Assembly: GCA_947653375.1 (NCBI GenBank)
Contig: CANTHA010000002.1
Span: forward strand, 1 to 41,816
DNA: 41,816 bases
Reading direction: 5' to 3'
DNA from: an uncultured Clostridium sp.
GTDB lineage: Bacteria; Bacillota; Clostridia; TANB77; CAG-508
The stretch's first letter is position 1; every line of letters begins with the position of its first letter. The notes beneath the pieces are model-generated. The model was not told where the DNA came from, did not search any database, and saw nothing but the letters and a program-made list of their open reading frames with translations. Made by a program: the position numbers and the translations under genes. Positions 325 through 32,940 of this stretch are shown here, in pieces.

Positions 325-359
325 TAAAAAATAGCTATTAAACTAATGTTAATAGCTAT
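325..359 (-). terminator. Rho-independent terminator after int
   Basis: Perfect 11-bp stem atagctattaa/ttaatagctat overlaps the int stop codon and is followed by a T-run on the minus strand. Confidence 0.6.
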
Positions 360-1620
360 AATTTGAAATTTTATTTATTATTTCTGAATGTGTTACACTT
401 TCAAATACATCATTTGCTTCTTTTCTTGATTCATTGGAACTAGATATATAATAATTTTCTGTTGTTTCTATATTTCTATGACCTAATAAGTCTGCAACAT
501 CTCGAATTTCAATGCCATTCTTCAATATCTTTGTAGCATAACTTCCTCGAAGATCATAGAATCTACATTTTTTTATTCCTAGCTCATAATGAATAATTTT
601 AAATGGGTATCTAGTTATATCTGTTCCAGAATATACACCATTTTCTCTTGTAAAAACTAGATTTAATGTATCTATTGTTAGTAAATTATTTTCATTTTCT
701 ACAATACGATGTTCTATAACTTTTCCATATTCATTTTTAACTTCTTCTAAATGATAATAATGATAATTTGAGCCATATAACTTTTTAAAAAATGATTGTT
801 TCTTTTTATAATTCTTTAATGCGTTTAATAATGTATTACTTATATGTATTACTCTATCTCCTGTTGATGTTTTGGTATTTCCTAAAAACCATTTTCCTTT
901 TTCATCTTTTTTCTTATCATAAACATTATGTTGAATATGTATAGTACCATTTTCTAAATCTATATTATTCCAAGTTAATGCAAATACTTCACCAGTTCTC
1001 ATTCCTGTATAGCAAGATGTTAAAAAGGCACAAGTAAAAGTATCATTATCTTTAAATCTAGTTAAAATTTTATCAATTTCTTCTTGACTATATATGTGTT
1101 TTGCATCTCTTTTTTCTTCTTCTATTTTAGGCAATCTTAATGTAATTGTAGGATTATATTTTATAAAACCATATACATCACAAGCCTCTCTAAATGATCC
1201 TTTTAATACTTTCAATATATTTGAGAAATATGTCCTAGAAAATGTATATTTGCAACATATATCTGTTATAAAAGAATGTAATTTCACACTTGTCAGAGCC
1301 GATAAACGATACATACCAATATTGGGTTTCAAGTATTTTTCTATTATAGTATTATATGATTGAATTGTATTATATCGCAGATTTACTTTACAATAATTTT
1401 GCATCCAATAATCTAAATAATCACTATATGAAATATTACTTTCTTTAAAATTTAGTCCTGTAGTTAAATATTCATTATATGCAATATTTCCCTCCTCTTG
1501 TGCCTCAACTTTTGTTCTAAATCCAGATTTACATATTTGTTTTCTTTTTCCATTTATAGGAGCAGCTTCAAAATAATATTGATATGTTTTTCCTCTTTTT
1601 CTTACATTTACTGTTCCCAT
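349..1620 (-). CDS. int: Tyrosine site-specific integrase
   Basis: N-terminal arm-binding-type region (VRKRGKTYQYYF). Catalytic region contains YTGMRTGE, YDLRGSYAT and LLGHRNIETTENYY. ATG start lies 2 nt after the xis stop. Confidence 0.9.
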   Translation of the reverse strand: MGTVNVRKRGKTYQYYFEAAPINGKRKQICKSGFRTKVEAQEEGNIAYNEYLTTGLNFKESNISYSDYLDYWMQNYCKVNLRYNTIQSYNTIIEKYLKPNIGMYRLSALTSVKLHSFITDICCKYTFSRTYFSNILKVLKGSFREACDVYGFIKYNPTITLRLPKIEEEKRDAKHIYSQEEIDKILTRFKDNDTFTCAFLTSCYTGMRTGEVFALTWNNIDLENGTIHIQHNVYDKKKDEKGKWFLGNTKTSTGDRVIHISNTLLNALKNYKKKQSFFKKLYGSNYHYYHLEEVKNEYGKVIEHRIVENENNLLTIDTLNLVFTRENGVYSGTDITRYPFKIIHYELGIKKCRFYDLRGSYATKILKNGIEIRDVADLLGHRNIETTENYYISSSNESRKEANDVFESVTHSEIINKISNYSY

Positions 1621-5674: not shown

Positions 5675-6559
5675 CTATATAAATGATAATTGTTCTTCTT
5701 GTTTCATTTCTTTTTTATATGCTTTTACTATATCGTTCATTCTATAAAGTAATCCATATCTTTCACATTCTTCTTTAAATACTTTTCCTAAATTATTATT
5801 TAGTGGATAACAAAAATAATTATTTCCATAAGTTTTTATATACTTATCTTTTAATTTAGGAAATATCTTATCTAGTTGCTCATAAAAATATTCTCTTTGA
5901 TTTTCTCTTAATGTAACTCCTCCCATTGAGAATACAAATTTTGCTCCATTTTCATAAGATAATTTTATTACATTTCTAATATTTTCCTCCGAATCTGTTA
6001 TAAATGGAATAATTGGTGTTAGTAATGTTCCAATAAATAGTCCCTGTTTGGATAATTGTTTCATCGCTTTTAGCCTTTCAGAAGAAACACATACATTTGG
6101 CTCTATTTTTCTTGATAAATTATCATCTGCTGATGTAATTGTAAATTTAAGTATTACATCTGCTTTCCTGTTTATTTTCTTAAATATGTCTATATCTCTA
6201 ACTATCAAATTACTTTTTGTTTCTAGTGATACTCCAAAATTGTAATAGGAAATCAATTTTAATGCTTGTCTTGTTATTTCATATTGTTCTTCAAAAGGAT
6301 TGTATGTATCTGACATTGCTCCTATACCTATTACTCCTTTTTTTCTTTTTGATTTTAGTTCTTGACTTAATATTTCTATTTCATCTTTTTTGGCTCTTAC
6401 CCTATCAAAATCCTCTACTTGATAGCAATTACTTCTACTATCGCAATAAATACATTTATGACAGCAACCTTTATATAGATTCATATTATAATCAATTCCA
6501 AACCATTTTTCTCCGTGTGTTGCTCTTTGAAGTATTGTCTTTGCTTCTATAAATTCCAT
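5675..6559 (-). CDS. Radical SAM protein, SplB/DNA-photolyase-like family (COG1533-type)
   Basis: GCCHKCIYCDS cluster near the N-terminus. Size and layout are typical of SPL-family radical SAM proteins. Confidence 0.8.
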   Translation of the reverse strand: MEFIEAKTILQRATHGEKWFGIDYNMNLYKGCCHKCIYCDSRSNCYQVEDFDRVRAKKDEIEILSQELKSKRKKGVIGIGAMSDTYNPFEEQYEITRQALKLISYYNFGVSLETKSNLIVRDIDIFKKINRKADVILKFTITSADDNLSRKIEPNVCVSSERLKAMKQLSKQGLFIGTLLTPIIPFITDSEENIRNVIKLSYENGAKFVFSMGGVTLRENQREYFYEQLDKIFPKLKDKYIKTYGNNYFCYPLNNNLGKVFKEECERYGLLYRMNDIVKAYKKEMKQEEQLSFI

Positions 6560-6561
6560 AA

Positions 6562-7200
6562 CTATTTCCTTTTTCTTATTGGATGTCTTATAACTGTTTT
6601 TAATTTATTTACATCGCATCTTCTTGGATCACTTAAATAAATTTCGTGATGAAAACGAGTATCTGTAATATCTAGTTCATATCCATTTTCTATCATATAT
6701 TCGTGCATTAAACTAATAGTTTTAGGCTCATTATCATAAGAGCCTATGTGCATACATTGAATGCAGATCCCTTCATCATAAGTTAAAAATTCTACTTTTG
6801 AAAAATCTTGTTTCTTTTTCTTGGTAGCCTCATCAATAGCCCATTCAAAATCTTCTTTTGTTACAAAGTCTGGTAATCTAATAATTGAAATAAAGTTAAA
6901 TTTGTCTTTACTCTTATAATCTATACTACTTTTGTTTCCTTCTTGCCACCAGAATCCTTCAAGTGGTGGAACTACATATTCAAAATAGCCATTTATTTTA
7001 TATGTTCCTTTATAACTCATTTTTATAGTAAAAGCAATCGAATACAAAAGTCCTATTGAATCTTTATATTCACTATTTTCATCATTAGGATTTCCTTTTC
7101 CTCTAACTGCAATGTAATTCATTTTAGGAATTTCTACAATACTAGGTTTATTCTTTGGTATATAAAATTCCTTATATTCCTTTTTATAATCAAAAGCCAT
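6562..7200 (-). CDS. GyrI-like small-molecule-binding domain protein
   Basis: N-terminal DYKKEYKEFYIPKNKPSIVEIPKMNYIAVRGKGNPN pattern is typical of GyrI-like proteins. Confidence 0.75.
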   Translation of the reverse strand: MAFDYKKEYKEFYIPKNKPSIVEIPKMNYIAVRGKGNPNDENSEYKDSIGLLYSIAFTIKMSYKGTYKINGYFEYVVPPLEGFWWQEGNKSSIDYKSKDKFNFISIIRLPDFVTKEDFEWAIDEATKKKKQDFSKVEFLTYDEGICIQCMHIGSYDNEPKTISLMHEYMIENGYELDITDTRFHHEIYLSDPRRCDVNKLKTVIRHPIRKRK

Positions 7201-9369: not shown

Positions 9370-11040
9370 TCATATATTCTCTTTGTTATATCGCCAAATA
9401 AATCCACCTGCTGATTTTCTAGTTCCATTACAGGCACTTGAAATATGTTTTATCCCAGTTAGATTTATAGCTTCTGTAACACTATTATATGTATTAACAT
9501 ACACGCCATCTAAAGTATATTGATAAACTTTTTTTGATTTTTTATTTCCTATAACTTTTTTTGCACATTCTGGACACCCTTTGCCCTGACTTCTATTATA
9601 TGGTGTTGATTGCCATTCATATTCGCAATTTGAACATTTCCACCATACTTTTTTATTACTTTTCAATGTTATTTCATTAGGAGATATAGTATTTTTTTCA
9701 TAATTCCACTCTTTTAAAAATATAGGTTTTTTTTCAAATAGTGTTCCATTCTTTTTCAATAATACTTTTTCAAGAGTAGCAACCCTTCTTTTATGCGAAC
9801 ATTTTGGGCATTTACATCCAGCCATAATTTCATTTGGACTTCTAAAATATGCTTCTCCACATTTAGAACATTTCCACCATACTTTTTTCCCACTAGATAA
9901 ATATATCGTATCTGGAGTTATAGGATAATTTTTTTCATAATCCCATTCTTTTATTATTTCACTATTTAGACTTGATAAACTGCGTTCTTTCAAAGATTTT
10001 TGATAAGATTTATCTATTTCACTATAATCTCTTTTTACATCAATAAAGTTTTTATCATATATAATGTTTAGTTTATCTAATAATGTTTTTATTGCCTTTG
10101 TTAAATTATCACCTTTATCATATCCATATATTATCTTATTATCTTTCCAAAATACATTGTTGCTTTTTTCTTTTTTCTCAATTATTCTATATAATGTGAT
10201 TCCTCTTTTTTTGATTTCATTTTCTTTTTGTTTATCAGTAGTTTTCTTGTTTTTATGAAAGAAAAATCCATCATACTCAATACCTACTTTGAATTGTGGT
10301 AAAAATATATCAATTTCATATCTATTATCTAATTTATACCTATTATAGCATTCTATATTTAACTTTTTAATATAGTAGAAAATAGCCTGTTCTCCAAATG
10401 AAGTATTCTTTTCTGAATTACATTTTGGGCATCCTCTACCATTACTTCTACTAGATATAATTGCTTTCCAACTATTTTTACATCTTTTACATATCCAATA
10501 AGCATACTGATTAGAAAATTCACCAATTTTATGAGGATTCAACTTGTTTTTTTCATAATCCCATTCTTCTAATAATTTAGGTTGTTTTGTTGCAAAATCG
10601 TTATATCCTGTTAAAATTTTATTTCCATAACAATAAACACATCTAGGAAATTTTTTTATTGCATAGGAAGTAGCATATCGTTCGTGTCCACATTCAAACT
10701 TCCACCAATATTTTTTTGTAGCATTAAATATAACTTCTTCTGGTCTTTTGTTATTTTTATCATAGTTCCAAAATTGTAATATTTGAGAATCAGTTGTTTT
10801 TAGATCATTATATCCTTTTTTGACACATCTTCTATTACAATACGGACAGCCATTTTTTATATTATTTCTATCCTTTACAATTTTTTGATATATATGACCG
10901 TTTTGGCATTTCCACCATACTTCTTTATGGCTTCCACACGTCACTTTTTGAGGGAAAATATTTAATTTATTATTTTTTTCATAATACCATTCTTTTATTA
11001 AAAGTTCATTATCTATAACATACTTCTTATCTTTACTCAT
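9370..11040 (-). CDS. Multi-zinc-ribbon protein with central Vsr/DUF559-like nuclease core and C-terminal homing-endonuclease-type DNA-binding motif
   Basis: Five WWKC...CPxC treble-clef-like modules. The core reads EIDIFLPQFKVGIEYDGFFFH and the tail reads VTEAINLTGIKHISSACNGTRKSAGGFIWRY. Confidence 0.65.
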   Translation of the reverse strand: MSKDKKYVIDNELLIKEWYYEKNNKLNIFPQKVTCGSHKEVWWKCQNGHIYQKIVKDRNNIKNGCPYCNRRCVKKGYNDLKTTDSQILQFWNYDKNNKRPEEVIFNATKKYWWKFECGHERYATSYAIKKFPRCVYCYGNKILTGYNDFATKQPKLLEEWDYEKNKLNPHKIGEFSNQYAYWICKRCKNSWKAIISSRSNGRGCPKCNSEKNTSFGEQAIFYYIKKLNIECYNRYKLDNRYEIDIFLPQFKVGIEYDGFFFHKNKKTTDKQKENEIKKRGITLYRIIEKKEKSNNVFWKDNKIIYGYDKGDNLTKAIKTLLDKLNIIYDKNFIDVKRDYSEIDKSYQKSLKERSLSSLNSEIIKEWDYEKNYPITPDTIYLSSGKKVWWKCSKCGEAYFRSPNEIMAGCKCPKCSHKRRVATLEKVLLKKNGTLFEKKPIFLKEWNYEKNTISPNEITLKSNKKVWWKCSNCEYEWQSTPYNRSQGKGCPECAKKVIGNKKSKKVYQYTLDGVYVNTYNSVTEAINLTGIKHISSACNGTRKSAGGFIWRYNKENI

Positions 11041-11148: not shown

Positions 11149-11197
11149 ACTATTTTATGTAAATATGATAAGATATATATGAAGGGAGTTGATATTT

Positions 11198-11362
11198 ATG
11201 GATTCTAAAACAATCTATTTAATTATGAAAAATACTGCTAAATTAGAAAAACTAATTGAAACCAATGCTCCTTATGAAAAGATCATCAAACAAAGTCAGA
11301 AATTAGACAAGTATATTATGATACAAATGAAACATATTAACAAAATAGGAGTTAGTTCTTAA
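11198..11362 (+). CDS. Spo0E-family aspartyl-phosphate phosphatase-like protein (54 aa)
   Basis: Not in the ORF track because it is under 60 aa. GAAGGGAG RBS. MDSKTIYLIMKNTAKLEKLIETNAPYEKIIKQSQKLDKYIMIQMKHINKIGVSS carries the SQxLDxxI signature. Confidence 0.6.
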   Translation: MDSKTIYLIMKNTAKLEKLIETNAPYEKIIKQSQKLDKYIMIQMKHINKIGVSS

Positions 11363-11376
11363 ACTATCTCCTATTT
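11343..11376. terminator. Bidirectional hairpin between convergent genes
   Basis: aaataggag/ctcctattt, a perfect 9-bp stem spanning both stop codons. Confidence 0.5.
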
Positions 11377-11635
11377 ATTCTTTTACTGCAATCAATAATT
11401 CGTTAGGTTGTACTGTCATATTTGCATTTCTATAAGTATATTTTGCTCCTGTAAAATATACATCATATCCATTGTTTTCAAAATAGTCTTTATTTATTTT
11501 TAAAAACTTATCTATCTCTAGTTCTGATAAATTGTTCTTAACTCTTAGCTCATAAAAAGTATATCTTATAAAATTCTTATCTTCGCTTTCATTTAATTTA
11601 TCATTTATATAGTTAATTACAAAAGCATCTGTCAT
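11375..11635 (-). CDS. Hypothetical small protein (86 aa)
   Basis: I prefer the start at ATG 11635 (GGAAGTGAG RBS, MTDAFVINY...) because a good promoter and tandem 0A boxes lie inside the longer track ORF (to 11731). Confidence 0.55.
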   Translation of the reverse strand: MTDAFVINYINDKLNESEDKNFIRYTFYELRVKNNLSELEIDKFLKINKDYFENNGYDVYFTGAKYTYRNANMTVQPNELLIAVKE

Positions 11636-11660
11636 TTTCTCACTTCCAATCTCAAATAGA

Positions 11661-11689
11661 ATTATATCATATTCTTGTTTTTCTGTATA
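11661..11689 (-). promoter_or_regulatory. Sigma-A-type promoter for the 86-aa gene
   Basis: On the minus strand: TATACA, 17-nt spacer, TGATATAAT (extended -10). Confidence 0.45.
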
Positions 11690-11711
11690 GATTTTTGATT
11701 GCATTTTGTTA

Positions 11712-11728
11712 TTCGACAACATTCGACA
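11712..11728. promoter_or_regulatory. Tandem consensus Spo0A boxes, 10-bp phased
   Basis: TTCGACA at 11712 and 11722 (TGTCGAAtgtTGTCGAA on the minus strand), between the divergent promoters. Confidence 0.5.
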
Positions 11729-11749
11729 CAATTCCTTATAAAAAGGGCT

Positions 11750-11780: not shown

Positions 11781-11809
11781 TTGAATTGACATAATTTTTG
11801 TGATATAAT
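11781..11809 (+). promoter_or_regulatory. Sigma-A-type promoter of the Spo0A-like gene
   Basis: TTGAAT, 17-nt spacer, TGATATAAT (extended -10). GAGG RBS lies 7 nt before the ATG at 11848. Confidence 0.5.
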
Positions 11810-11847
11810 GTGGAAAAAAATAGGAGAAACATTTGTGAGGCAAAATT

Positions 11848-12579
11848 ATGGTTAATGTACTTATCGGCAACAAGAATACTAGAGAAACTGATATTCTTTG
11901 CCACGAACTTGCAAATGATAAAAATTATAGGGTTGATAATGTTGTTACTGGAAAAGATGCAGTAACTATGTATTGGGATATGAATCCAGATATTTTAGTT
12001 TTAGATAATAACTTATCTGATATGTCTATTGAAGATATAGTAAATAGATTATCTTGTAATCCTTTAGAACAAAAACGATGTAATACTATTCTAACACTAT
12101 CGCCACACTATAGAATGAAATTGAATAATGTTGCAAAAATCAATGAGATTATATATAAACCTATTTTAAATAATGAGTTAGTTGAAACTATAAAAACAAT
12201 GTCTATTGATTATAATACTCCAGATTTAGAAGTTGGTGAAATTGATTGGCTGTTACAATCTCTAAACTTTAATTGTATGTCTGCTGGATATAAATATATG
12301 CGAGATGCTATTACCTACTGCTATTATAGACCAGATGAATTAGAATTTTTAACTACAGTATTGAAATATATTGCTTATAAATATGATGTTCCAGAATCAC
12401 GAGTTAGAGATTCATTAAAGAGTTGTATTAGACCATTTAATAATACCAATATATATAGTTGCCCAGATGATCTGTATAAGGTATTATACAATAGTGGTAA
12501 TAAATTATCCCTTAAAGATTTTATAGAAAGAATCGTTTTTTATTTGATTAGAGTTAAGAAAAAAGGTAGAATATTCTAG
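11848..12579 (+). CDS. Spo0A-family regulator paralogue (receiver + Spo0A_C DNA-binding domain) with degenerate acidic pocket
   Basis: NPDILVLDNNLSDMSIEDIVNRL and IIYKP align with the Spo0A receiver. GYKYMRDAITYCYY...VPESRVRDSLKSCI aligns with the Spo0A C-domain. The DD pair is replaced by N-K (VLIGNKN). Confidence 0.75.
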   Translation: MVNVLIGNKNTRETDILCHELANDKNYRVDNVVTGKDAVTMYWDMNPDILVLDNNLSDMSIEDIVNRLSCNPLEQKRCNTILTLSPHYRMKLNNVAKINEIIYKPILNNELVETIKTMSIDYNTPDLEVGEIDWLLQSLNFNCMSAGYKYMRDAITYCYYRPDELEFLTTVLKYIAYKYDVPESRVRDSLKSCIRPFNNTNIYSCPDDLYKVLYNSGNKLSLKDFIERIVFYLIRVKKKGRIF

Positions 12580-12602
12580 TTATTAGAAGTATCCTACCTT
12601 TT
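12561..12602. terminator. Bidirectional hairpin between convergent genes
   Basis: aaaaggtag/ctacctttt, a 9-bp stem with a partly self-paired loop and T-runs on both strands. Confidence 0.55.
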
Positions 12603-12606
12603 CTTT

Positions 12607-13812
12607 TTAAAACTGTGCATTTATGTATTCTTTATAAGAATCTATAATTCCTACATATCTTATTTGTGTTTGTTCTCTAATTACTGTATTCATCTTATCT
12701 CCAATAATCTTTTTAGCTTCCAAATATTCCTCTTTTGGAATGTCTAAAGCTATAAAATTAAATGCTGGTACATTTTCATTTAATGCTTTTTTAGATTGTT
12801 TAATTATATCAAGTCCATTCATATTAGTTCCAAAATCATATTTAGAAAACACCATTTCTGGCTTAAATTCAATAATTTTATTGTAAGTATCTTCTGGATT
12901 TTTTGTTGTAGCAACAATTTCAATATCCTCAATTCCTTTTAATATATTAACAATTTCATCCTTTGTTTTATCATCATCGTAAGCGATTAACGCCCTAATC
13001 TTTTTCATAATACTATCTCCATTCATATTTATATACTCATCAATATACTTGACTACATTATCATTTATTGCATTTCCAAGTAAGAAGTCTATACCATTTT
13101 CTGTTTTTATTATATCCCCATTTGCTAAAATCAAAATATTTTTCTCTAAATCTTCCTGTTTCTTAAAGGTTACACTACTTATATTTTCATACTTTTCATA
13201 TATTTTTCTTAATACACTATCAAATTCAAAGTTTGTAATTTCAAATATTTCTCTATTTTTTTCAGCCGATTCTCGTAATGGCATAAATTGATATAATTTC
13301 CAAATACCAATTTTATAATTATTTAAGAAATCACCTAATTCTTCAATTTCTTCAAGATTTTGTTTATTTACTACTGTATTTATATTCACTTTCAATTTCT
13401 TATAGTTTTCCAACTTTATATAGTTAAGTATATTGTGAATATTGGTAAAGTGTTTCTCTCCTCTACCTAATATATCATTAGTTTTACTTTTTATAGAATC
13501 TAATGATATTGTCAGATCATCTAAATAATTCAGTATTTCATAGTTTTGCTCTAACAATTTTCCATTTGTTATGATTCTATTATAGATTCCGTTCTCTTTT
13601 GATATTTTGATTAACTTATACAACTCTGGATATAATAGTGCCTCTCCACCAGTCCAGGTAATATGTGTTATTCCATCTCTTATTAGATTATATAGTATCT
13701 TTTCATTCTCTTTATAATCTAGTTCTCTTATGTTTATGAAACGATGACAATATTTGCAATTTTGATTGCATCTTGAAACAATATTCCAGCATACTTTCTT
13801 TTTAATTTTCAT
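12607..13812 (-). CDS. Radical SAM enzyme (viperin-like core) fused to a C-terminal CheY-like receiver domain
   Basis: Core motifs are CNQNCKYC, TGGEALL, ITNGKLL, LTISLDSIKSKTNDILGRG and IWKLYQFMPL. The C-terminal ~125 aa begin IRALIAYDDD and continue PEMVFSKYDFGTNMNGLDI. Confidence 0.75.
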   Translation of the reverse strand: MKIKKKVCWNIVSRCNQNCKYCHRFINIRELDYKENEKILYNLIRDGITHITWTGGEALLYPELYKLIKISKENGIYNRIITNGKLLEQNYEILNYLDDLTISLDSIKSKTNDILGRGEKHFTNIHNILNYIKLENYKKLKVNINTVVNKQNLEEIEELGDFLNNYKIGIWKLYQFMPLRESAEKNREIFEITNFEFDSVLRKIYEKYENISSVTFKKQEDLEKNILILANGDIIKTENGIDFLLGNAINDNVVKYIDEYINMNGDSIMKKIRALIAYDDDKTKDEIVNILKGIEDIEIVATTKNPEDTYNKIIEFKPEMVFSKYDFGTNMNGLDIIKQSKKALNENVPAFNFIALDIPKEEYLEAKKIIGDKMNTVIREQTQIRYVGIIDSYKEYINAQF

Positions 13813-13968: not shown

Positions 13969-14871
13969 TTATTGTTTTTTTAAATAATTTTTAATAAATT
14001 GTTTATCTACTTTTGTCAACTGATTTTTTAAATATACTATTTTTATACTGCTCTTTGGTAACTTTATAGGAACTTTAACTTCATATAATTCATTATTTTC
14101 TATATATTTACAAGCAGTTTCTCTCATTACATAAGCGATTCCTATTCCATCTAATGCTGCATTTACTCTATCTTCTGTAGTAGGACATCTTAATATTGCA
14201 TTAAGAGAAATGTTGTGATCTTTCAATTTTTCGTTTAATTCTACAGTCGAAATTCTATCTTCATAATTCAAAATATATTTATAATTATTAAAATCTACTA
14301 TATCTTTTATTTCTATTTTTTTATTAGCTATAAAAACATTTTCAATAGTTTCTATTTCTTCTATCTCTAAATCTTCTTTATATTCTGGAGGAATAACATC
14401 TAAAATAATAAAGTCTATCTTATTACTTTTTAATGATTCTATTAGTTCTTTACTATTAGATTCTGTGTCTAAATTTATTTGAATATTTGGATAATCTTTT
14501 ACAAGATCAACAAGTTTTTTTCTTAAAAAGAATTTTGTTATATGCGAAGGGCATCCTACAGATATTTTTCCATTTTCTAAGCTATTTTTGCTTTCTATTA
14601 TTGTTGGTATAAAATCAAATAATCCGATTGATTTTTTAGCTTGAATGTATGTTTCTTTTCCAAACTCTGTTAGTTTTAGACCTTTGTTAGAGCCTTTATT
14701 TTTTCTATAAAATAGTTGTACTCCTAATTGATCTTCAAGCGAATTGATATTTGCACTAACAATCCTATCACTTATATTTAATTTTTCAGCAGCTTCAGCA
14801 AAACTGTCCGATTCTGCTACAGTTAAGAAAGTTCTATATAGATTTAGGTTTATATTATTTACATTAACCAT
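13969..14871 (-). CDS. LysR family transcriptional regulator
   Basis: N-terminal LNLYRTFLTVAESDSFAEAAEKLNISDRIVSANINSLEDQLGVQLF HTH; 300 aa. Confidence 0.9.
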   Translation of the reverse strand: MVNVNNINLNLYRTFLTVAESDSFAEAAEKLNISDRIVSANINSLEDQLGVQLFYRKNKGSNKGLKLTEFGKETYIQAKKSIGLFDFIPTIIESKNSLENGKISVGCPSHITKFFLRKKLVDLVKDYPNIQINLDTESNSKELIESLKSNKIDFIILDVIPPEYKEDLEIEEIETIENVFIANKKIEIKDIVDFNNYKYILNYEDRISTVELNEKLKDHNISLNAILRCPTTEDRVNAALDGIGIAYVMRETACKYIENNELYEVKVPIKLPKSSIKIVYLKNQLTKVDKQFIKNYLKKQ

Positions 14872-14877: not shown

Positions 14878-15507
14878 CTATCTCCCCAATATCTTCTTTA
14901 ATTCCCTTTCAGCTTTTTTTACAAAAAAATCGCTTTCATCTATTGGTATTTCTAACTCTCTTATCATTTGTTTTAATTTATCTACTGTATCAAGTTGTTC
15001 ATTATTTTCTACTGTTTCAACTTCGATTAAGTTATCTCCGTTTTCTATATCTTTAATTGCAATTTCAAGTCCATTTTTGCCATATACTAAACTACTTTCT
15101 CTAATACTCATTATTTCTTTATATTCAATGGCTTTTATAAAACTTTTGCCCTGTTCTAAATTCTTTATTTCACAGTCAACCTTTTCTTGACCAATAATAT
15201 CTCCATTGGGTGCGATATCTTTATTTTTATATGTCATTTTAATAATATCATAACTACTTGTAAAATCACTTGGCTCATATTGTTTTATCTTTCTTATCAA
15301 GATATAGTGATTTAATACTTCTCTAGGAGATAATTTCGTTATATCTAAATCTTTTGAAATATAATATGTATCATCTAAAAAATATTTATCAACTATCTTA
15401 AATCCTTTGTTTTCTAGTATATTATACATTTCCTCTATACTACATTTTAGTTTGACTGTTATTTCATTACTCACCAAATATCTCTCCTTAAAAATATTAC
15501 TTTTCAA
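14878..15507 (-). CDS. CYTH domain protein (class IV adenylate cyclase / triphosphatase-like)
   Basis: NEITVKLK at the N-terminus, then IRKIKQ, MTYKNK, VDCEI and LIEVE beta-strand acidic/basic patterns. The second Glu of EXEXK is replaced by Thr. Confidence 0.6.
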   Translation of the reverse strand: MKSNIFKERYLVSNEITVKLKCSIEEMYNILENKGFKIVDKYFLDDTYYISKDLDITKLSPREVLNHYILIRKIKQYEPSDFTSSYDIIKMTYKNKDIAPNGDIIGQEKVDCEIKNLEQGKSFIKAIEYKEIMSIRESSLVYGKNGLEIAIKDIENGDNLIEVETVENNEQLDTVDKLKQMIRELEIPIDESDFFVKKAERELKKILGR

Positions 15508-15599
15508 TTATAACACATTATGTCAATTTTGTAAAGTCAAAAAAGTTCTAAAAAAAGCCACCATTTCAACAATAGCAGCTATTTTTCTTATATAAAATT

Positions 15600-15812
15600 T
15601 TATATACTGTCAATACATCTAAACACATTACTATATTGGTCTTGTAATTTGCTTATATCTCCGTTTTTAGAACTATGGCTCATTATATAATCTACAATTT
15701 GCATTTTACATCTTTTTAATTCTTCTTGATTATAATCCTTATCTTCAATAATTACTCCTGCTTTTTCTATTAGTTCTACATCTTTTTTAGTACATTCATT
15801 TAATATGTTCAT
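15600..15812 (-). CDS. Hypothetical protein (70 aa)
   Basis: ORF co-directional with its neighbours. No recognisable motif. Confidence 0.45.
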   Translation of the reverse strand: MNILNECTKKDVELIEKAGVIIEDKDYNQEELKRCKMQIVDYIMSHSSKNGDISKLQDQYSNVFRCIDSI

Positions 15813-15849
15813 TACTGCTACTTCCCTTCTTTGCTTTATATTACTCTCG

Positions 15850-16389
15850 TTAATTTATTCTCTTATGTTCTAAATAATATTCTAAAATTTTTCTATCTCT
15901 TAATACAACAAATCTAGTATCATATACATCATCATAGTCTGATGGTAATAATTTATCATAGCAATCTGTTACTAATTTTAATGCCTCTTTAGGCTCTACC
16001 CATAATAACTTTGCACCTTCACTTTTCTCTTTTTCAGTTAAATTTAATTTGTGCTTATCGTTTATAACTTTTGCAATAAAAATATTAGATATTTGTTTCA
16101 AATTTTGCAAACTCTTATATTCTTCTGTAGTTCCTAATTTCTCAATAATCTCTATTTCGCAACCTGCTTCTTCTAATACTTCTCTTTTGAAAGCAATGGT
16201 CGGATCTTCATTTTCTTCCATTCCTCCTCCGACAAGTTTATATTCATTTTTATTGCTTTTATTTTGTATTGCTATTTTTCCATCATCTCTAACAACAATT
16301 CCTCTAGCAGCTACTCGTAATCTATAATCTTTCATTTCTTGTGGCTCTATTCCAAAATCTTTATCTGTTATTTTAAATAATATATCCAT
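15850..16389 (-). CDS. NUDIX hydrolase
   Basis: Nudix box GGGMEENEDPTIAFKREVLEEAGCEI. Confidence 0.85.
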   Translation of the reverse strand: MDILFKITDKDFGIEPQEMKDYRLRVAARGIVVRDDGKIAIQNKSNKNEYKLVGGGMEENEDPTIAFKREVLEEAGCEIEIIEKLGTTEEYKSLQNLKQISNIFIAKVINDKHKLNLTEKEKSEGAKLLWVEPKEALKLVTDCYDKLLPSDYDDVYDTRFVVLRDRKILEYYLEHKRIN

Positions 16390-16414
16390 TTCTTCTCTTA
16401 CCTCTTTCTATAAA

Positions 16415-16759
16415 TTATTTTTCCATTTCCCAACTCTTGAAATATATACATTCATTGTTATCATTGAATTTTATCTCATATATACCATCAAATTCGGTAA
16501 TATCTCTTTGAAATATCCAATTTACAATTACTGTATTATCTTCTATTGCTAAAATTTTAAATTCTAACTTTTTTATATCTTGATTATCAATATTCTCCCA
16601 TTCTTTTGCAATTTCTTCATATTTAGTATAAGGTGTTAAAAATGGTGTTTCTTGATAAAAGTTTGTATTAGTAAATAATGATGCTGCTTTATTAGAATCT
16701 TTATTTAGCCAAGATTCTTTTAGAATATTTAACCAATTTTCTATATATTTTCTATCCAT
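16415..16759 (-). CDS. NTF2/SnoaL-like fold protein, paralogue of 22424-22789
   Basis: Size and pattern fit (WLNILKESWLNKD...VIVNWIFQ). Clear similarity to the 121-aa paralogue. Confidence 0.5.
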   Translation of the reverse strand: MDRKYIENWLNILKESWLNKDSNKAASLFTNTNFYQETPFLTPYTKYEEIAKEWENIDNQDIKKLEFKILAIEDNTVIVNWIFQRDITEFDGIYEIKFNDNNECIYFKSWEMEK

Positions 16760-16773
16760 AATATTTTCTCCTA

Positions 16774-17613
16774 TTATTTAATAACTCCTCCAGAACAATG
16801 AAGCTCATATATTAAATTATTATCTTTATATACTTGCTCAATTCCATCAAAATTTTCTATTGTTCCATTTGCTTTAAAAGTATAGACATATCCATTATTT
16901 TCAAACTTAATTGGTCCTCTAGCTGGAATTATATTTTTATCTTCACCAACTTTCATTAGTGCTGGTCTTAATGCGTTATCCATTGCTTCCTCGCCTAATG
17001 TATCATCATAAGTTATACCATAATAATTCATTCCCCATATTGGCTTGTTATCATCACAATATACAACTTCTTCACCCATAAATTTAATCCCACCAAAATA
17101 TGTATCGTGGTATGTATATTTTTTATTATCAATTATTTCCTCATAATTATAGTCTGATGATCCGACTCTACTTGCTATAACTTTTTCTATTGTACCATTG
17201 GCATAAGTGGATTTCTTCGCTCTAATTAAAAAATCAATAAATGTATTATCTATAATATTTCCTGCATAGTAAGTTTCTGCATAAAAGCTATTATCTCTTA
17301 ACATTTTGTCGATAGATTCAAATTCACATTCTGCAAATTCACAACATAATCTCAATATTTCTTTTTCATTATCTTTATTTAGTACATATTTCTTTATTTC
17401 GCCATTTCTAAATTTAAAGATAAATACCTTATCTTTACCTAGATATTCATTCCAAAATCCATTTTCAAGCGTTTCACATATATATTTTTCAAACAATTCA
17501 ATCTTGTTATCATCAAATATAACTCCATAATTATTCCCAAATGATTTTATTCTAAAATTATCTTGTTTAAGTGCATCAATATTGTTGATTCCCATTACAT
17601 AACTGTAGTTCAT
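16774..17613 (-). CDS. Protein with C-terminal DUF5680-like domain
   Basis: TYANGTIEKVIASRVGSSDYNYEE...YHDTYFGGIKFMGEEVVY...WGMNYYG pattern. Confidence 0.55.
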   Translation of the reverse strand: MNYSYVMGINNIDALKQDNFRIKSFGNNYGVIFDDNKIELFEKYICETLENGFWNEYLGKDKVFIFKFRNGEIKKYVLNKDNEKEILRLCCEFAECEFESIDKMLRDNSFYAETYYAGNIIDNTFIDFLIRAKKSTYANGTIEKVIASRVGSSDYNYEEIIDNKKYTYHDTYFGGIKFMGEEVVYCDDNKPIWGMNYYGITYDDTLGEEAMDNALRPALMKVGEDKNIIPARGPIKFENNGYVYTFKANGTIENFDGIEQVYKDNNLIYELHCSGGVIK

Positions 17614-17616
17614 ATC

Positions 17617-17994
17617 CTATTCCTCCAATTTAAAAAATGTATCTTTATTTCTATCAATAAGATTATGTGCCATCTCCATTTCTTCTGGCTTATTTATATA
17701 AATAATTTTAAACTTTCCAGATGTGGTTTTATTTATATAATCGTGATTTACTTCTAATATATGTACTTGTCCCCAATATAGCCATTTTCCATCAATATTC
17801 TCTACTAAAAAATTTCTAACTGGTGGCATTTGATAATTTCTAATACTAGGCTTATCTTTAAATTCAAATATTCTATCAGCAAATTGTTCTGTAGTATATG
17901 GAATTTTCAAATGTTTTTTCCAATCTAATTCTTTTGGAAATCCCTGTTCCTTTGTTATTTGTAATGTATCATTAATTTCAATATATGATCCCAT
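17617..17994 (-). CDS. Hypothetical protein (125 aa)
   Basis: ORF lies 3 nt upstream of the next gene. No recognisable motif. Confidence 0.55.
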   Translation of the reverse strand: MGSYIEINDTLQITKEQGFPKELDWKKHLKIPYTTEQFADRIFEFKDKPSIRNYQMPPVRNFLVENIDGKWLYWGQVHILEVNHDYINKTTSGKFKIIYINKPEEMEMAHNLIDRNKDTFFKLEE

Positions 17995-18019
17995 ATTTAT
18001 TTCCTCCTATTTCATTAAA

Positions 18020-18592
18020 TTATTTATCTATAAATAAAACCTTTAGTATATTCTTATACCTATCTTTTATTATTTCTCTTGTTTTATCACTTAATTTATT
18101 GTAATCTCGTTCCAATTTTTTCTTTAAATAATTTTCTCCATCTTTTACTGATGAATTCATTTCATTGTAAACTAGGTGGAATAACGAAGGGATGCAGTCA
18201 AAATGTGCAATAACATCTGCATCTGCTACACATTGTTCTTCTATTGTATTTCTTGGTAATTCTTTACTACCTCTATGTCTTAATACACATTCTTTAACTC
18301 TTTCTTTTCTATCTTCTGGATAGTTCAATTTTGTTAGTAATTCATCTGCAATTTTCACTCCATAAACATTGTGTTCTTCTCTAGGTCCAAATTCTGATGG
18401 CATTGCTATATCGTGTAATAATGCTCCTAACTCTACAATTTCAATATCTGCATTATATTCTTTTGCTAATTCTACTGCATTTTTTACAACATATTTAATA
18501 TGGTCATTCCAAAAATCATAGTTATACTTTTCATTATATATATTGCATCTTTTTATCAATTCTTCTTTAATATTCTCTACTATTTCATTCAT
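18020..18592 (-). CDS. HD domain phosphohydrolase
   Basis: GALLHDIA HD motif plus downstream His/Asp residues (RHRG, DADVIAH). Confidence 0.8.
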   Translation of the reverse strand: MNEIVENIKEELIKRCNIYNEKYNYDFWNDHIKYVVKNAVELAKEYNADIEIVELGALLHDIAMPSEFGPREEHNVYGVKIADELLTKLNYPEDRKERVKECVLRHRGSKELPRNTIEEQCVADADVIAHFDCIPSLFHLVYNEMNSSVKDGENYLKKKLERDYNKLSDKTREIIKDRYKNILKVLFIDK

Positions 18593-18607
18593 TGTTCGTA
18601 CTCCTTT

Positions 18608-19519
18608 TTAATTTAAGAAATTACTAACGATAATACTTTGTTCTTTTCCATTTATTTTTACTTCTGCTCCAATAGGAATAATGCTATTTCCGTGTTTATG
18701 TCCAAAATCATTAGTTTTTACTATTGGAACATCTGAATTTATCTTTCTTAATTCATCTACAATACTATATTTATTTTTTTCTACATCTTGAAGTTGATAT
18801 ATATAACCAAAAACAACAGCTCTATTAAACACATTCATTTGATTATATTGTTCTAGCATTGTATTCCATTGAATAATATCACTATGGAATCCTTCTAAAA
18901 ATAATACTGCATTTTTTAAATCTGGCATATATGGTGTTCCTAATAATTTCAATAAGCATCTTACATTAGTTCCATATATCTTACCATTGATTTCTTCATT
19001 TTTAAAATCAATAAATTGTCTTTCTTCATAAGGAATAATTGTTTTATTAGCATTAAATAATTTATCAATAATTTCATTTTTATCATATTCTGTAACTTCA
19101 TCTTTTCCAAACCAAACATAATCTTGACAATGAAAAGTTACAAGTCCAGTCATTTTATTTATAGCACAAAGTAAAACTGTAATATCACTCATACCTAGAA
19201 ATATTTTAGGATTGTTTTTTATATTTTCAAAATCTATATATGGAAGTATTCCATTTACCATATCTCCACCTTTTACAGTAAATATTGCTTTAACTTCTTT
19301 ATCGCTAAACATATCATTTAAGTCTTTTGCTCTTTCTTTAGGTGTTCCAGCACAGTAATTATCTTCTGAAAATAAATATTTACCATATTTTACTTTTAAT
19401 CCTAAACTTTCAAAATATTTAGTTGCATTTTCTAAAGGTTTTATATCTTTATTTTTTAATGCTTTATCTGGAGCAATAACTCCTATTGTATCTCCTACTT
19501 GTAATTTATTCGCTAACAT
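18608..19519 (-). CDS. S66 family LD-carboxypeptidase (MccF/LdcA-like)
   Basis: GDTIGVIAP and GMSDITVLL (nucleophile Ser), with a C-terminal GHKHGN His. Confidence 0.8.
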   Translation of the reverse strand: MLANKLQVGDTIGVIAPDKALKNKDIKPLENATKYFESLGLKVKYGKYLFSEDNYCAGTPKERAKDLNDMFSDKEVKAIFTVKGGDMVNGILPYIDFENIKNNPKIFLGMSDITVLLCAINKMTGLVTFHCQDYVWFGKDEVTEYDKNEIIDKLFNANKTIIPYEERQFIDFKNEEINGKIYGTNVRCLLKLLGTPYMPDLKNAVLFLEGFHSDIIQWNTMLEQYNQMNVFNRAVVFGYIYQLQDVEKNKYSIVDELRKINSDVPIVKTNDFGHKHGNSIIPIGAEVKINGKEQSIIVSNFLN

Positions 19520-19534
19520 TGTAATCTCCCTCTT

Positions 19535-20227
19535 TTAATTTCTTTCTATTATTAAATCTGCAACTGTTAAATTGCAATCACTTGTAACATTATCTATAAT
19601 TGTTTTTGCTACATCTTCTGCTTTCATAAAAGAATTAGATTTTTCTACAGATACATAATCTCTACTATTTTTATAAAATTCTGTATTTATTCCTCCTGGA
19701 TATACTCCAATTACTTTTACACTTGTACCTTTATATGCAACTTTTAAACTTTCTGTATATCCTCTTTCTCCCCATTTTGTAGCACAATAAACTGATTCTT
19801 GCTTATTACCTCTTAATGCTGCAGATGACATTATATTTACTATTTTCAAATTCTTTTCTTCTTTAATTTTTAATGTTTCTGTAGAGCATATTATCATTCC
19901 TTTTAAGCCTTTAAAACATTTTTCAATATCTGCATTTTCATAATTAGTTGGTAACTTAAATGATGGCTCTCCTGCATTATTAACTAAAATACTAATATTT
20001 CCAAGTTTTGAGATTTCGTTTATTGTATTTCTTATAAATTCTTCATCTGATATATCTCCAATAAAGCCTTTATAGTTGTCTGTATATATATTATTTAATT
20101 CATTCATTTTTGTAACATCTCTGTCTATATTACAAACAAATAATCCTTTTTCTATTGATTTTTTAACTAATGCTAATCCTAAACCATTAGCTCCACCAGT
20201 TATAATAATTATATCTTTCATACTCAA
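19535..20227 (-). CDS. SDR family oxidoreductase
   Basis: ITGGANGLGLA glycine motif and YCATK active-site motif. Confidence 0.85.
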   Translation of the reverse strand: MSMKDIIIITGGANGLGLALVKKSIEKGLFVCNIDRDVTKMNELNNIYTDNYKGFIGDISDEEFIRNTINEISKLGNISILVNNAGEPSFKLPTNYENADIEKCFKGLKGMIICSTETLKIKEEKNLKIVNIMSSAALRGNKQESVYCATKWGERGYTESLKVAYKGTSVKVIGVYPGGINTEFYKNSRDYVSVEKSNSFMKAEDVAKTIIDNVTSDCNLTVADLIIERN

Positions 20228-21620: not shown

Positions 21621-21640
21621 CTTTTCACACTTTCTTATTT

Positions 21641-22402: not shown

Positions 22403-22423
22403 CTTCTTTTACCTCCAATTATA

Positions 22424-22789: not shown

Positions 22790-22809
22790 AACTATACCTC
22801 CTTAAATAC

Positions 22810-23982: not shown

Positions 23983-23988
23983 TTTTCC

Positions 23989-24531: not shown

Positions 24532-24543
24532 AGTTAAACCTTT

Positions 24544-25071: not shown

Positions 25072-25088
25072 TGTATTTCTCCAATTTT

Positions 25089-25442: not shown

Positions 25443-25443
25443 T

Positions 25444-25959: not shown

Positions 25960-25962
25960 TAT

Positions 25963-26754: not shown

Positions 26755-26761
26755 AATTACC

Positions 26762-27532: not shown

Positions 27533-27546
27533 CTCTTTTATATCTT

Positions 27547-31308: not shown

Positions 31309-32940
31309 TTATTTACTATATAATGAATCAATCTCTTTTTTCTTTTCCAAAACAAGTTTTTCTAAATCTGTTCCCTTTGCGATTCCAATTTTTTGATTGT
31401 CTTTATCATATAGTTCGTATTCTTTATCATCTACTAAATATAATGTATAAAACTGATATTTTTCATTATAGGCAGTAAATTTTTTATCTATATGTATTTT
31501 AAAGTTTGTATAAGGTAAATTTATACAATACTCTTTATCATTTGAATTTTTGTAGTCTATTTTATTTCCACCAAATTTAATATTGTGTATATATAAACCA
31601 CTACTTGATAATTTTTCTTCTTTTATAGTTTCTAAATGATTAAGTTCCCTTTGAAGTTCTAATATTTCGTTTCTTTTTTTATTTATTTTAATTCGTTCTG
31701 ATCTTGAATCTTTAATTAACTGCTTTGCTTCATCAATAGAAGTTATATTCAAATCATTTTGTAATTTTATAAATATATCAACTTCTGTTGGAAATACATA
31801 ATCCTCATCTATTTCTTTATAAGACATAGCATACTCATATAATTCATAAAGTCTAATATAATCATTTGCCATCTCTGTAGTTTTAAGAATCTTATTAAAT
31901 TTTTCTTGATTCTTTTTCACTTCAATATTTTTATCTTTTATCTGCCCTCTTTTAATTGATATTTCTGTTTCAATATCATTGAAATCTCGGATATTATATT
32001 TATCTAAATATTCTAATTGTTGTTTTAATTTATAATATCGTTGTATTTCTTGATATTTTGTTTTTTGATATTCATTATAAACTTTTCCTTTAGTTTGCAA
32101 CTGACTTTTTTCTATAGCAATTTTAGATTCATTTGCTTTTTGAAATAATATAGAATTAAATTCTGTTTTATTTGTTTTTATTGCTAGTAATTTAATGTTT
32201 GTCCTATCTCTATAAAATTTATATAAATTGTTAGTAGCATACTTTGAACTTATTGTATCTATTCTTGCATATCTTTGCATACCTAAACATCTAACTGAAA
32301 TATGCTTTCCTCTCCTTATCTCATATCCTTTAATAGATAATTCATCTAATAGTTCATCAATACTATTACATTTAGAAATAACCTTTTCAATATCATCTTG
32401 TATTTGTTCTTTCCAAGTCTGTCTTTTATATTGGTAATAGTAATCTCTTTCTCTCGATTTATGATAAATTTTTTTAGGCATAATAAAACAACCATACTCT
32501 GCTGCAATTTTATCACTTGTATCGCTTAATCCATACAAACCTTCTTTTTGATTTGCAAGTCTATCTTCTAATTTCTTTCCAGACAAGTTTATTGCATTTA
32601 CAGATATATGATTGTGTATATGTCCTTTATCAATATGAGTGGATATTACACATTGATAATTCGGATATAGTTCTTTGCATAATTTCAAGCCAATTTCATT
32701 TGCTTGTTCTACAGTTATTTTATCCTTTGGAGAAAAACTTTGTATAATATGATATGCTGATCTAGTTCCTGTCATTTTAAATTTGTTTTGAACATCTTTA
32801 AATTCATAATATGCAGTATTTATATTGCAATTTAAGCTACTTGTAAATCCAACTTTTGCTCCATCATTTTTTTCATCCAAAATATATTCAATTAAATTTT
32901 TCGCAGTTCCTAAATGTGCTAATCTTTTTGTAACTGGCAT
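31309..32940 (-). CDS. Relaxase/mobilization nuclease (MobA/VirD2-type, PF03432-like)
   Basis: YHIIQSFSP and HIDKGHIHNHISVNAINL histidine triad, followed by a long Lys/Glu-rich C-terminal region. Confidence 0.85.
   Translation of the reverse strand: MPVTKRLAHLGTAKNLIEYILDEKNDGAKVGFTSSLNCNINTAYYEFKDVQNKFKMTGTRSAYHIIQSFSPKDKITVEQANEIGLKLCKELYPNYQCVISTHIDKGHIHNHISVNAINLSGKKLEDRLANQKEGLYGLSDTSDKIAAEYGCFIMPKKIYHKSRERDYYYQYKRQTWKEQIQDDIEKVISKCNSIDELLDELSIKGYEIRRGKHISVRCLGMQRYARIDTISSKYATNNLYKFYRDRTNIKLLAIKTNKTEFNSILFQKANESKIAIEKSQLQTKGKVYNEYQKTKYQEIQRYYKLKQQLEYLDKYNIRDFNDIETEISIKRGQIKDKNIEVKKNQEKFNKILKTTEMANDYIRLYELYEYAMSYKEIDEDYVFPTEVDIFIKLQNDLNITSIDEAKQLIKDSRSERIKINKKRNEILELQRELNHLETIKEEKLSSSGLYIHNIKFGGNKIDYKNSNDKEYCINLPYTNFKIHIDKKFTAYNEKYQFYTLYLVDDKEYELYDKDNQKIGIAKGTDLEKLVLEKKKEIDSLYSK

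Follow-up and report, generated by a model that had tools for sequence, protein, structure and literature searches.

A Spo0A-like atypical response regulator with a degenerate phosphorylation pocket and upstream 0A boxes in a conserved mobile cassette of uncultured gut Clostridia

Spo0A is the sporulation decision-maker in Firmicutes, and sporulation drives the transmission of gut Clostridia. What does a Spo0A-like gene do when it is carried on accessory DNA and encodes a receiver that lacks part of its phosphorylation pocket? We addressed this question on contig CANTHA010000002.1 (assembly GCA_947653375.1) of an uncultured Clostridium sp.; the whole analyzed stretch of 41,816 nt is referred to below as the window. 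An initial annotation of the window had described one of its genes (Table 1) as an orphan Spo0A paralogue with a disabled acidic pocket and had proposed that it could act as a decoy, a constitutive regulator or a competitor at 0A boxes, the DNA sites of Spo0A. Our analysis of the gene, of its relatives and of their surroundings led to a different emphasis, in that the Spo0A-like gene is a component of a conserved mobile cassette that appears to be wired to the host Spo0A signal.

To place the 243-aa protein relative to Spo0A, we aligned it and its family with six canonical Spo0A proteins taken from database loci, all of which carry ADDN, IIMPHLDG, LSAVG, KPF and SRVERAIRHAIEVAW. MAFFT and hhalign gave one colinear alignment covering both domains over 224 columns (hhalign probability 97.8%, E = 9e-13, identity ~20–22%), which confirms the whole-length alignment with Spo0A that had been proposed. 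The receiver fell into the same register with both methods (window/canonical: GNKN/ADDN, PDILVLD/PDILILD, ILTLS/VLSAV and YKP/VKP), and the acidic pocket is therefore not restored by re-alignment. In the C-domain, the register was GYKYMRDAI/GYLYLREAI, ESRVRDSLKSCI/SRVERAIRHAIE and DFIERIV/EFIAMIA. Against Pfam, Spo0A_C (PF08769) matched aa 135–232 with 28.2 bits, above the cut-off of 25, and Response_reg scored 22.6 bits, under its cut-off of 30.2. An AlphaFold2 (AF2) model of the full protein, built with 81 homologues as input, had a predicted local distance difference test score (pLDDT) of 90, and its N-terminal domain matched receiver structures with a template modeling (TM) score of ~0.8 in Foldseek; the alpha-4 helix was absent from the receiver model according to DSSP. 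We modeled the C-domain on its own, since the receiver dominated the fold search with the whole protein. In this model (pLDDT 87), the sole significant folds in the PDB (E ≤ 0.0015) were the Spo0A effector domains 1LQ1 and 1FC3, with TM scores of 0.72–0.82 and root mean square deviations of 2.3–2.5 Å, and the next fold match had E > 0.5. A sequence profile of the C-domain likewise matched only 1FC3 and 1LQ1 in the PDB below E = 0.01. Thus, the protein has the two-domain architecture of a receiver and Spo0A_C, and it belongs to the Spo0A_C domain family by both its score above the gathering threshold and its effector fold.

The protein is nevertheless a paralogue and not a Spo0A orthologue, as judged by four features that define the orthologue. 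Specifically, it scored 33.9 bits against the NCBIfam Spo0A equivalog TIGR02875 (cut-off, 200), its pocket is incomplete, its recognition helix is a different one, and its gene lies outside the recN-spoIVB-spo0A neighborhood. At the canonical control loci, spo0A is located directly downstream of spoIVB and recN. Using tblastn, we found neither SpoIVB nor RecN in the window, and no spoIVB, recN or canonical spo0A within 10 kb of the family members at any of the fetched family loci, so that the spoIVB-spo0A neighborhood, which the initial annotation had named as part of what would refute its reading, is missing throughout. In addition, two metagenome-assembled genomes (MAGs) hold two copies each of the Spo0A-like gene, which fits the assignment as a paralogue. 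Compared with Spo0A (TIGR02875; PDB 1LQ1, 1FC3 and 1QMP), the window protein shares the two-domain architecture, the unique effector fold and a 0A box upstream of its gene, but it is only 20–22% identical, has a short linker, has lost the Asp-Asp pair and carries a changed recognition helix, and its gene is borne on a mobile element without the spoIVB-spo0A synteny. The ratio of nonsynonymous to synonymous substitution rates (dN/dS) of the gene versus its relatives was 0.11–0.32, i.e., the gene is under purifying selection and is therefore functional, the product of neither chance nor decay.

In the window protein, the Asp-Asp pair reads N8-K9, and D53, T83 and K104 are retained. Counted over 81 full-length relatives, position 8 is N in 63, S in 15, T in 2 and Y in 1, and is never D or E, while position 9 is K in 61 and R in 10 (Lys or Arg in 71) and is E in just 2. 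The acceptor D53 is invariant (81/81), with T83 found in 69 and K104 in 75 of the relatives. The combination that had been noticed in the single protein, i.e., a disabled Asp-Asp pair (GNKN) next to a kept acceptor Asp, Ser/Thr and Lys, thus extends to the whole family. Given a receiver (beta-alpha)5-type fold, at least one missing residue among the five catalytic ones and a first acidic position that is non-acidic family-wide, the protein classes by its sequence as a pseudo-receiver, i.e., an atypical response regulator, under published definitions (PMC12632262). According to the same source, the Asp-Asp pair binds the Mg2+ that is required for phosphotransfer, DD2 is the residue lost most often (in ~80% of pseudo-receivers), and D, T and K are retained in ~65% (PMC12632262).

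With CmrT, GlnR, RamR, HP1043 and ChxR, the family has in common a receiver fold without catalytic residues and the loss of DD2. These known pseudo-receivers have OmpR- or NarL-type output, whereas the window protein has Spo0A_C, and, unlike them, its family resides on mobile elements and has as its partner a radical S-adenosylmethionine (SAM) enzyme to which a second pseudo-receiver is fused (see below). A further parallel is CheY D13K, a phosphorylation-independent active form of CheY. This variant has been employed as constitutively active CheY (bioRxiv 10.1101/781468). The window family has Lys at the second acidic position beside an intact acceptor Asp, which resembles CheY D13K; the latter was created by a designed point mutation in a single-domain protein, whereas the state of the window family occurs naturally and family-wide. 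In GlnR and RamR, the Asp that is still present functions in dimerization, and in the model for CmrT a two-component system works by altering the expression of a constitutively active pseudo-receiver (PMC12632262). By analogy, the retained Asp of the window family may serve dimerization, and the activity of the window protein is probably set by its expression level.

The breadth of the family became apparent from searches of large protein collections. A total of 115 clusters were returned from 5.8 billion proteins, most of them exactly 243 aa long and all of them from metagenomes or MAGs of uncultured Clostridia, and searching 1.84 billion cluster representatives (50% identity) with a profile yielded 160 clusters at E ≤ 1e-10, nearly all of 230–250 aa with a full-length match. 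At least 30 loci were present in GTDB representative genomes, all from uncultured gut Clostridia (human, mouse and rabbit). The view of the gene as a lone, unusual piece of cargo therefore has to be given up in favor of a large family that sits in a conserved cassette. Across 95 aligned clusters, the pocket forms a gradient: distant members are canonical (MIADDN..., VLLLDL..., VS-G and KP), intermediate members read LVANEN or LVADEN, and the window's clade reads GNKN. This gradient from intact to degenerate argues that the loss of the pocket is derived, and on the alignment the degenerate pocket is a derived state within a large uncharacterized family of short-linker Spo0A paralogues. In the C-domain, Y159, Y160, D188, K223 and F225 are invariant, and the DNA-binding domain is conserved as strongly as the receiver. 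Several spo0A-like genes per genome have been documented in Clostridiales (bioRxiv 10.1101/2022.02.25.481979), and PF08769 is enriched on mobile elements of gut Firmicutes (PMC6907783). These two reports share with the window family the extra spo0A-like genes and the mobile carriage, but they make no mention of the ~240-aa family, the degenerate pocket, the upstream 0A boxes or the cassette.

One subclade of the family (P0099–P0115) has an extra base at the junction of the receiver and the DNA-binding domain, in the context [A/C]CU-C-GGN, where the 0 frame reads the rare codon CGG (loci L035, 7298–8024; L036/L038, 10001–10727; and L039, 3457–4186). The 0 frame stops after 160 aa, and in three lineages that have diverged from one another the DNA-binding domain is intact and conserved in the +1 frame. 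The sequence suggests conserved, programmed +1 frameshifting that would give rise to a receiver-only and a full-length product.

We next turn to the DNA-binding side. The recognition helix SRVERAIRHAIEVAW is invariant in the six canonical Spo0A proteins, and the window protein reads SRVRDSLKSCIRPFN at this position, with 9 of the 15 residues differing, S184 and V186 kept, and the central E-R replaced by R-D. Within the family, the helix follows the pattern S-[R/Q/K]-V-R187-D188-[S/A]-[L/M]-[N/K], where R187 occurs in 79 and D188 in all 81 relatives. The Glu-Arg pair that has given way to Arg-Asp is reportedly the base-contacting pair of 1LQ1. The DNA-contact residues of Spo0A are conserved between Bacillus and C. 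difficile (PMC3485338). The replaced recognition helix therefore weakens the option that the paralogue competes with Spo0A at 0A boxes.

The gene itself is preceded by tandem perfect 0A boxes, which lie ~90–105 bp before the site where transcription of the Spo0A-like gene is predicted to begin (Table 1). Perfect TGTCGAA occurs four times in the window versus 1.17 expected, and only 0.06 tandem 0A boxes are expected in the window even when up to 2 mismatches are allowed. Among 29 related loci (506 kb), we counted 65 perfect boxes, 39 of which fall at −126 to −154 from the ATG of the Spo0A-like gene; these 39 share the same orientation throughout and exact 10-bp phasing, and they usually come in two or three copies. 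Of 20 distinct upstream sequences, ~15 have the boxes. When 14 upstream regions were aligned, four conserved blocks emerged, namely the boxes, AAATGTGTACAAAAAAAGA, the core promoter and the leader with the ribosome-binding site (ACATTTGTGAGG; GAGG at 11837–11840), and the conservation of boxes and promoter persists at a synonymous divergence of 0.8–1.3 between the genes. The distant P0134 locus has a tandem TGTCGAt/TGTCGtt at a similar distance in inverted orientation. As a control, we inspected seven canonical spo0A genes, six of which have a perfect TGTCGAA 46–173 bp upstream, often the only one of the locus. Tandem boxes with a 3-bp spacer are reportedly the arrangement that was crystallized in 1LQ1. 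In Bacillus and C. difficile, experiments have established TGTCGAA as the Spo0A box (PMC3485338).

Since the boxes stay canonical in subfamilies with differing recognition helices, a constant binder, i.e., the phosphorylated Spo0A of the host (Spo0A~P), is the more economical explanation, and conserved tandem boxes upstream of the gene itself point to Spo0A control of the gene and not to competition. Of the roles that had been put forward for the protein, that of a constitutive regulator therefore remains plausible, whereas that of a competitor at 0A boxes has become less likely.

The third perfect box of the window is part of a second tandem site, which lies ~45 bp upstream of a candidate Spo0E-like open reading frame (ORF; Table 1). 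Both the ORF and this tandem are conserved in the 97%-identical locus L010 and were not found in the other family loci; the ORF had no match in NCBIfam and no sequence match in the PDB. Separately, the sequence TT[G/T]ACATAAT was observed in the spacers of the promoters of the Spo0A-like gene (11786–11795) and of the CYTH-like/LysR genes (15516–15525). It is conserved in many loci, at differing offsets of 8 nt and 4 nt before TATAAT, and may be an operator that both promoters share or AT-rich promoter sequence that is alike by coincidence. As an operator for the paralogue, it was the only find in the promoters of the neighboring operons and was too weak to call.

The genes next to the Spo0A-like gene are as constant as the gene itself. 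All related loci (>30) have the same gene order, i.e., the Spo0A-like gene (+), a convergent radical-SAM gene and a LysR gene, and in most loci a ~195-aa CYTH-like protein joins the cassette. Even the distant member P0134 keeps the order, with an additional gene, for a UMPH-1 pyrimidine nucleotidase, inserted. The radical-SAM enzyme of the window matches the PADLOC pVip model with 130 bits and full-length coverage, and the NCBIfam viperin model NF038283 with 116.7 bits, below the cut-off of 180. In many relatives, a longer (~500 aa), unrelated radical-SAM enzyme replaces the viperin-like one (~400 aa), and both types end in the same ~130-aa tail (~12610–13002 in the window). This tail is receiver-like, as indicated by an hhalign probability of 96.3% to the Spo0A receiver, by PDB matches to CheB, VraR and CheY, and by a Pfam Response_reg score of 22.7 bits on the long radical-SAM form. 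The tail keeps the Asp-Asp pair and has Lys, Gln or Gly at the position of the acceptor Asp, while the regulator has lost the pair and kept the Asp; by these residues, the cassette holds two putative pseudo-receivers with complementary defects. Equivalents of the tail were seen in loci L005, L016, L022 and L040, and several MAG copies are split by frameshifts.

Other genes near the radical-SAM gene are predicted to process nucleotides. A NUDIX gene follows the CYTH-like gene, forming a nucleotide-processing stretch at 14878–16389, and the UMPH-1 pyrimidine 5′-nucleotidase of the distant locus L053 is encoded at 6093–6899. The presence of CYTH-like, NUDIX and UMPH-1 proteins with a viperin-like enzyme suggests a modified-nucleotide pathway. 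In comparison with pVips, the window enzyme is alike in its radical-SAM core, which matches the pVip models over the full length, and in its nucleotide-processing neighbors (CYTH-like and NUDIX; UMPH-1 in L053). It differs in scoring under the NCBIfam viperin cut-off and in being fused to a pseudo-receiver tail, and many relatives carry the other, longer radical-SAM enzyme in its place. Promoter- and terminator-like sites suggest three transcription units, one with the CYTH-like and LysR genes together and one each for the radical-SAM gene and for the Spo0A-like gene. We also observed small ORFs on either side of the cassette in the window, at 11375–11731 (~86 aa) and 15600–15812 (~70 aa), whose homologues are often found together just upstream of the Spo0A-like gene (L015, L019 and L035–L037).

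Taken together, the anatomy of the protein, its promoter and its cassette led us to propose a phosphorylation-independent Spo0A-like regulator that is produced under the control of host Spo0A~P and acts on genes of the element, a reading to which we assign a probability of roughly 0.5. Under this proposal, the element probably reads the sporulation signal of the host instead of replacing it. We infer three regulatory steps from this anatomy. A receiver without its metal site would not be phosphorylated normally and would therefore be active as made, in a state resembling that of CheY D13K, with its retained Asp possibly serving dimer formation as in GlnR and RamR. If the regulator is active as made, its amount would be the regulated quantity, and the tandem, 10-bp-phased TGTCGAA boxes would put its transcription under host Spo0A~P, such that the element would sense the entry of the host into stationary phase or sporulation. 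Lastly, the changed recognition helix would direct the regulator to a motif other than the 0A box, through which it would control element genes, most plausibly the adjoining radical-SAM/LysR/CYTH-like nucleotide-modifying cassette.

Several points weigh against this proposal. A search of the 5.8-billion-protein set with a canonical Spo0A profile tied no canonical spo0A to the host genomes among the matches listed, and the binder of the 0A boxes is assumed. The boxes are missing in four of ~20 distinct relatives; moreover, they are also located ~60–70 bp upstream of a leftward promoter-like site of the divergent small ORF and may serve this ORF as well or instead. The loss of phosphorylation is deduced from residue patterns, and E213, R214 and R217 are only reportedly the base contacts of Spo0A in 1LQ1. 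The promoters of the neighboring operons, where we looked for a DNA target of the paralogue, did not reveal one, and a convergent layout with the radical-SAM gene is unusual for a regulator and its target.

The boxes and the fold of the C-domain could also be read as signs that the paralogue has kept the specificity of Spo0A, in which case it would bind its own tandem boxes and the 0A boxes of the host in the unphosphorylated state and would force or block the Spo0A regulon. Such a competitor or autoregulator would account for perfect 0A boxes upstream of its own gene, as at the autoregulated canonical spo0A, and for the kept helix residues S184 and V186. It would have to do so with 9 of 15 residues changed in a helix, SRVERAIRHAIEVAW, that is otherwise invariant and with E-R turned into a family-invariant R-D, whereas the DNA-contact residues are all conserved even between the Spo0A proteins of Bacillus and C. 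difficile (PMC3485338), and with boxes that remain TGTCGA in subfamilies whose helices differ; we consider this possible but rather unlikely. The complementary defects of the two pseudo-receivers (the pair lost in the regulator, D replaced by K in the enzyme tail) raise another possibility, namely that the regulator is a protein-interaction module, in which its pseudo-receiver pairs with the radical-SAM tail and gates the enzyme, or acts as a decoy for host Spo0A or its kinases and titrates the signal. The occurrence of the same tail on two radical-SAM catalytic domains, always adjoining the Spo0A-like gene, is in line with this, as is a subclade able to make a receiver-only product of 160 aa. 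Yet a pure interaction module would hardly need a DNA-binding domain that is conserved like the receiver, with Y159, Y160, D188, K223 and F225 invariant, and the model has no alpha-4 helix, which is part of the surface through which receivers usually dimerize; this explanation is therefore unlikely.

The preferred reading of a phosphorylation-independent regulator further depends on the pocket being truly disabled. If phosphorylation were still achieved through an unconventional metal site or by a kinase specific to it, the protein would be an extra phosphorelay endpoint or a phosphate sink. The invariant D53, the mostly kept T83 and K104, the intact Asp-Asp pocket of distant family members and a candidate Spo0E-like phosphatase gene 490 bp upstream all speak for this, but both acidic positions are non-acidic in essentially all of the 81 relatives (the second being Lys/Arg in 71), T83 is replaced in 12 and K104 in 6 of them, and the missing pair is what binds the Mg2+ needed for phosphotransfer (PMC12632262). 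In addition, no histidine kinase was recognized among the window ORFs, which were read by eye and lay mostly outside the domain-library scan. We therefore regard continued phosphorylation as quite improbable. Hardly any credence can be given to a decaying, functionless relic of spo0A: the lost catalytic residues and the annotation of some relatives as truncated 160-aa products might suggest one, but the length of 243 aa is conserved over the 81 members, the promoter and the ribosome-binding site are near-invariant, and the "truncated" forms keep an intact downstream frame. The pseudogene hypothesis was rejected on the dN/dS values of 0.11–0.32.

Beyond the regulator that is made under Spo0A~P control and acts on element genes, a more far-reaching version can be formulated, in which gut Clostridia harbor mobile elements with a "sporulation-gated" module that both reads and tunes the sporulation decision of the host. 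In such a module, host Spo0A~P at the tandem 0A boxes would switch on the phosphorylation-independent paralogue. The paralogue would in turn activate the viperin-like radical-SAM/CYTH nucleotide-modifying system, through a new DNA motif and/or by pairing with the complementary pseudo-receiver tail of the neighboring enzyme, and this system could be antiviral or make a signaling nucleotide. Finally, in the element of the window, the Spo0E-like candidate phosphatase behind 0A boxes would feed back on the host phosphorelay. That all three linked parts hold jointly is doubtful; if they do, the module would represent a previously undescribed way for an element to read and tune host sporulation.

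Spo0A paralogues of Clostridiales, PF08769 on mobile elements and the pseudo-receiver class were already known, and what our analysis adds is the cassette of this family, its 0A-box promoter and its changed recognition helix. In the literature, we found no description of the family, of a 0A-box-bearing promoter of this kind or of a radical-SAM/pseudo-receiver fusion with a CYTH-like partner. Mobile Spo0A-derived regulators with Spo0A boxes would show that elements plug directly into the sporulation circuit. The fusion of a viperin-like radical-SAM enzyme to a second putative pseudo-receiver is a new architecture and may link nucleotide-based defense or signaling to growth phase. Moreover, the family offers a natural, family-wide conversion of a receiver to a pseudo-receiver, from Asp-Asp to Asn-Lys with an invariant acceptor Asp and graded intermediates in distant relatives, and this series is useful material because the way in which pseudo-receivers are switched on and off is listed among the questions that the field has yet to answer (PMC12632262).

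Table 1. Positions of the Spo0A-like gene, its control region, its cassette partners and the element genes in the window
Feature	Coordinates	Strand	Details and evidence
Tyrosine integrase	349..1620	-	Pfam Phage_integrase 75.8 bits, plus Arm-DNA-binding domain
Second tandem 0A-like site, TGTTGAA-ATT-TGTCGAA	11131..11147	-	~45 bp upstream of Spo0E-like ORF
Candidate Spo0E-like small ORF, 54–57 aa, SQKLD motif	11189..11362	+	Pfam PF09388 19.7 bits (E = 9e-4), below cut-off 23
Divergent small ORF, probably ~86 aa, start near 11635	11375..11731	-	Frequent upstream neighbor of family
Tandem perfect 0A boxes, TGTCGAA-TGT-TGTCGAA, 10-bp phasing	11712..11728	-	Box counts, alignment of relatives
Predicted promoter of Spo0A-like gene, TTGAAT-17-TGnTATAAT (extended -10)	11781..11809	+	Nearly invariant across family
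5′ untranslated region/ribosome-binding site block, ACATTTGTGAGG	11830..11840	+	10/12 positions invariant throughout the 14 aligned upstream regions
Spo0A-like atypical response regulator gene, 243 aa, ATG start	11848..12579	+	ORF list, Pfam, NCBIfam, hhalign, dN/dS
Predicted pseudo-receiver domain, aa 1–123	11848..12216	+	Residue counts, AF2 secondary structure, Foldseek
Spo0A_C-type DNA-binding domain, aa 125–243, recognition helix ESRVRDSLKSCIR	12220..12576	+	Pfam, PDB profile and fold searches
Hairpin with flanking A-run and U-run between the convergent Spo0A-like and radical-SAM genes, likely bidirectional terminator	12562..12608		RNA fold -14.7 kcal/mol, z = -2.8
Radical-SAM enzyme, viperin-like, 401 aa	12607..13812	-	PADLOC pVip, NCBIfam NF038283
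LysR-family regulator	13969..14871	-	Pfam HTH_1, LysR_substrate; in every related locus
CYTH/CyaB-like protein, 198 aa	14878..15474 (listed ORF to 15507)	-	TIGR00318 35.3 bits, E = 1e-8, below cut-off 58
MobA/VirD2-type relaxase	31309..32940	-	Pfam Relaxase 112.9 bits

As for the DNA that carries the cassette, the window (GC content ~25%) encodes, in addition to the integrase and the relaxase (Table 1), an HTH_17 excisionase-type protein, a C5 methylase, an N6/N4 methylase and ArdA, and these genes mark it as an integrative mobilizable or conjugative element. No type IV secretion genes were recognized in the window, where the translated ORFs were read by eye only. A relative with 70% identity (P0025; 679 contigs) has two large serine recombinases at a distance of ~2.4 kb, and its element was found at a minimum of three chromosomal sites, with murT/murJ, purC or ffh/thyX on the left flank depending on the assembly. 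Variable insertion, seen here through the related P0025 element, and the genes for the integrase, relaxase, ArdA and methylases bear out the placement of the Spo0A-like gene in accessory DNA. Neither megablast nor tblastn produced a match in the phage and plasmid collections, and the IMG/VR viral contigs contained no family member; a phage or plasmid origin was considered, and phage origin was dropped in favor of an integrative mobilizable element. Rfam returned no RNA family in the window.

Further genes of the window and of the related elements deserve a brief mention. Positions 9370–11040 encode a 556-aa protein with five DUF4379 treble-clef zinc-finger repeats (252 bits) and a NUMOD1 domain, which also weakly matches a REase/DUF559-like nuclease core. 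A long co-directional cargo block extends from 16400 to 29600; from translations read by eye, it appears to encode short-chain dehydrogenases, an iron-type alcohol dehydrogenase, GNAT acetyltransferases, an HD-domain protein, an LD-carboxypeptidase-like protein, a HAD hydrolase, a second NUDIX protein and a deaminase, and the domain library matched DUF5680 at 16774–17613. Related elements carry double AbrB/SpoVT-type proteins, small sigma-70-region-4-like proteins, a serine recombinase with a SpoVT_C domain and a stand-alone canonical receiver whose third-best NCBIfam match is the Spo0A N-terminus. These look-alikes of transition-state and sporulation regulators are located at 4965–5417 in L016, at 14084–14569 and 15346–15765 in L021, at 14025–14522 in L022 and at 271–2523 in L053.

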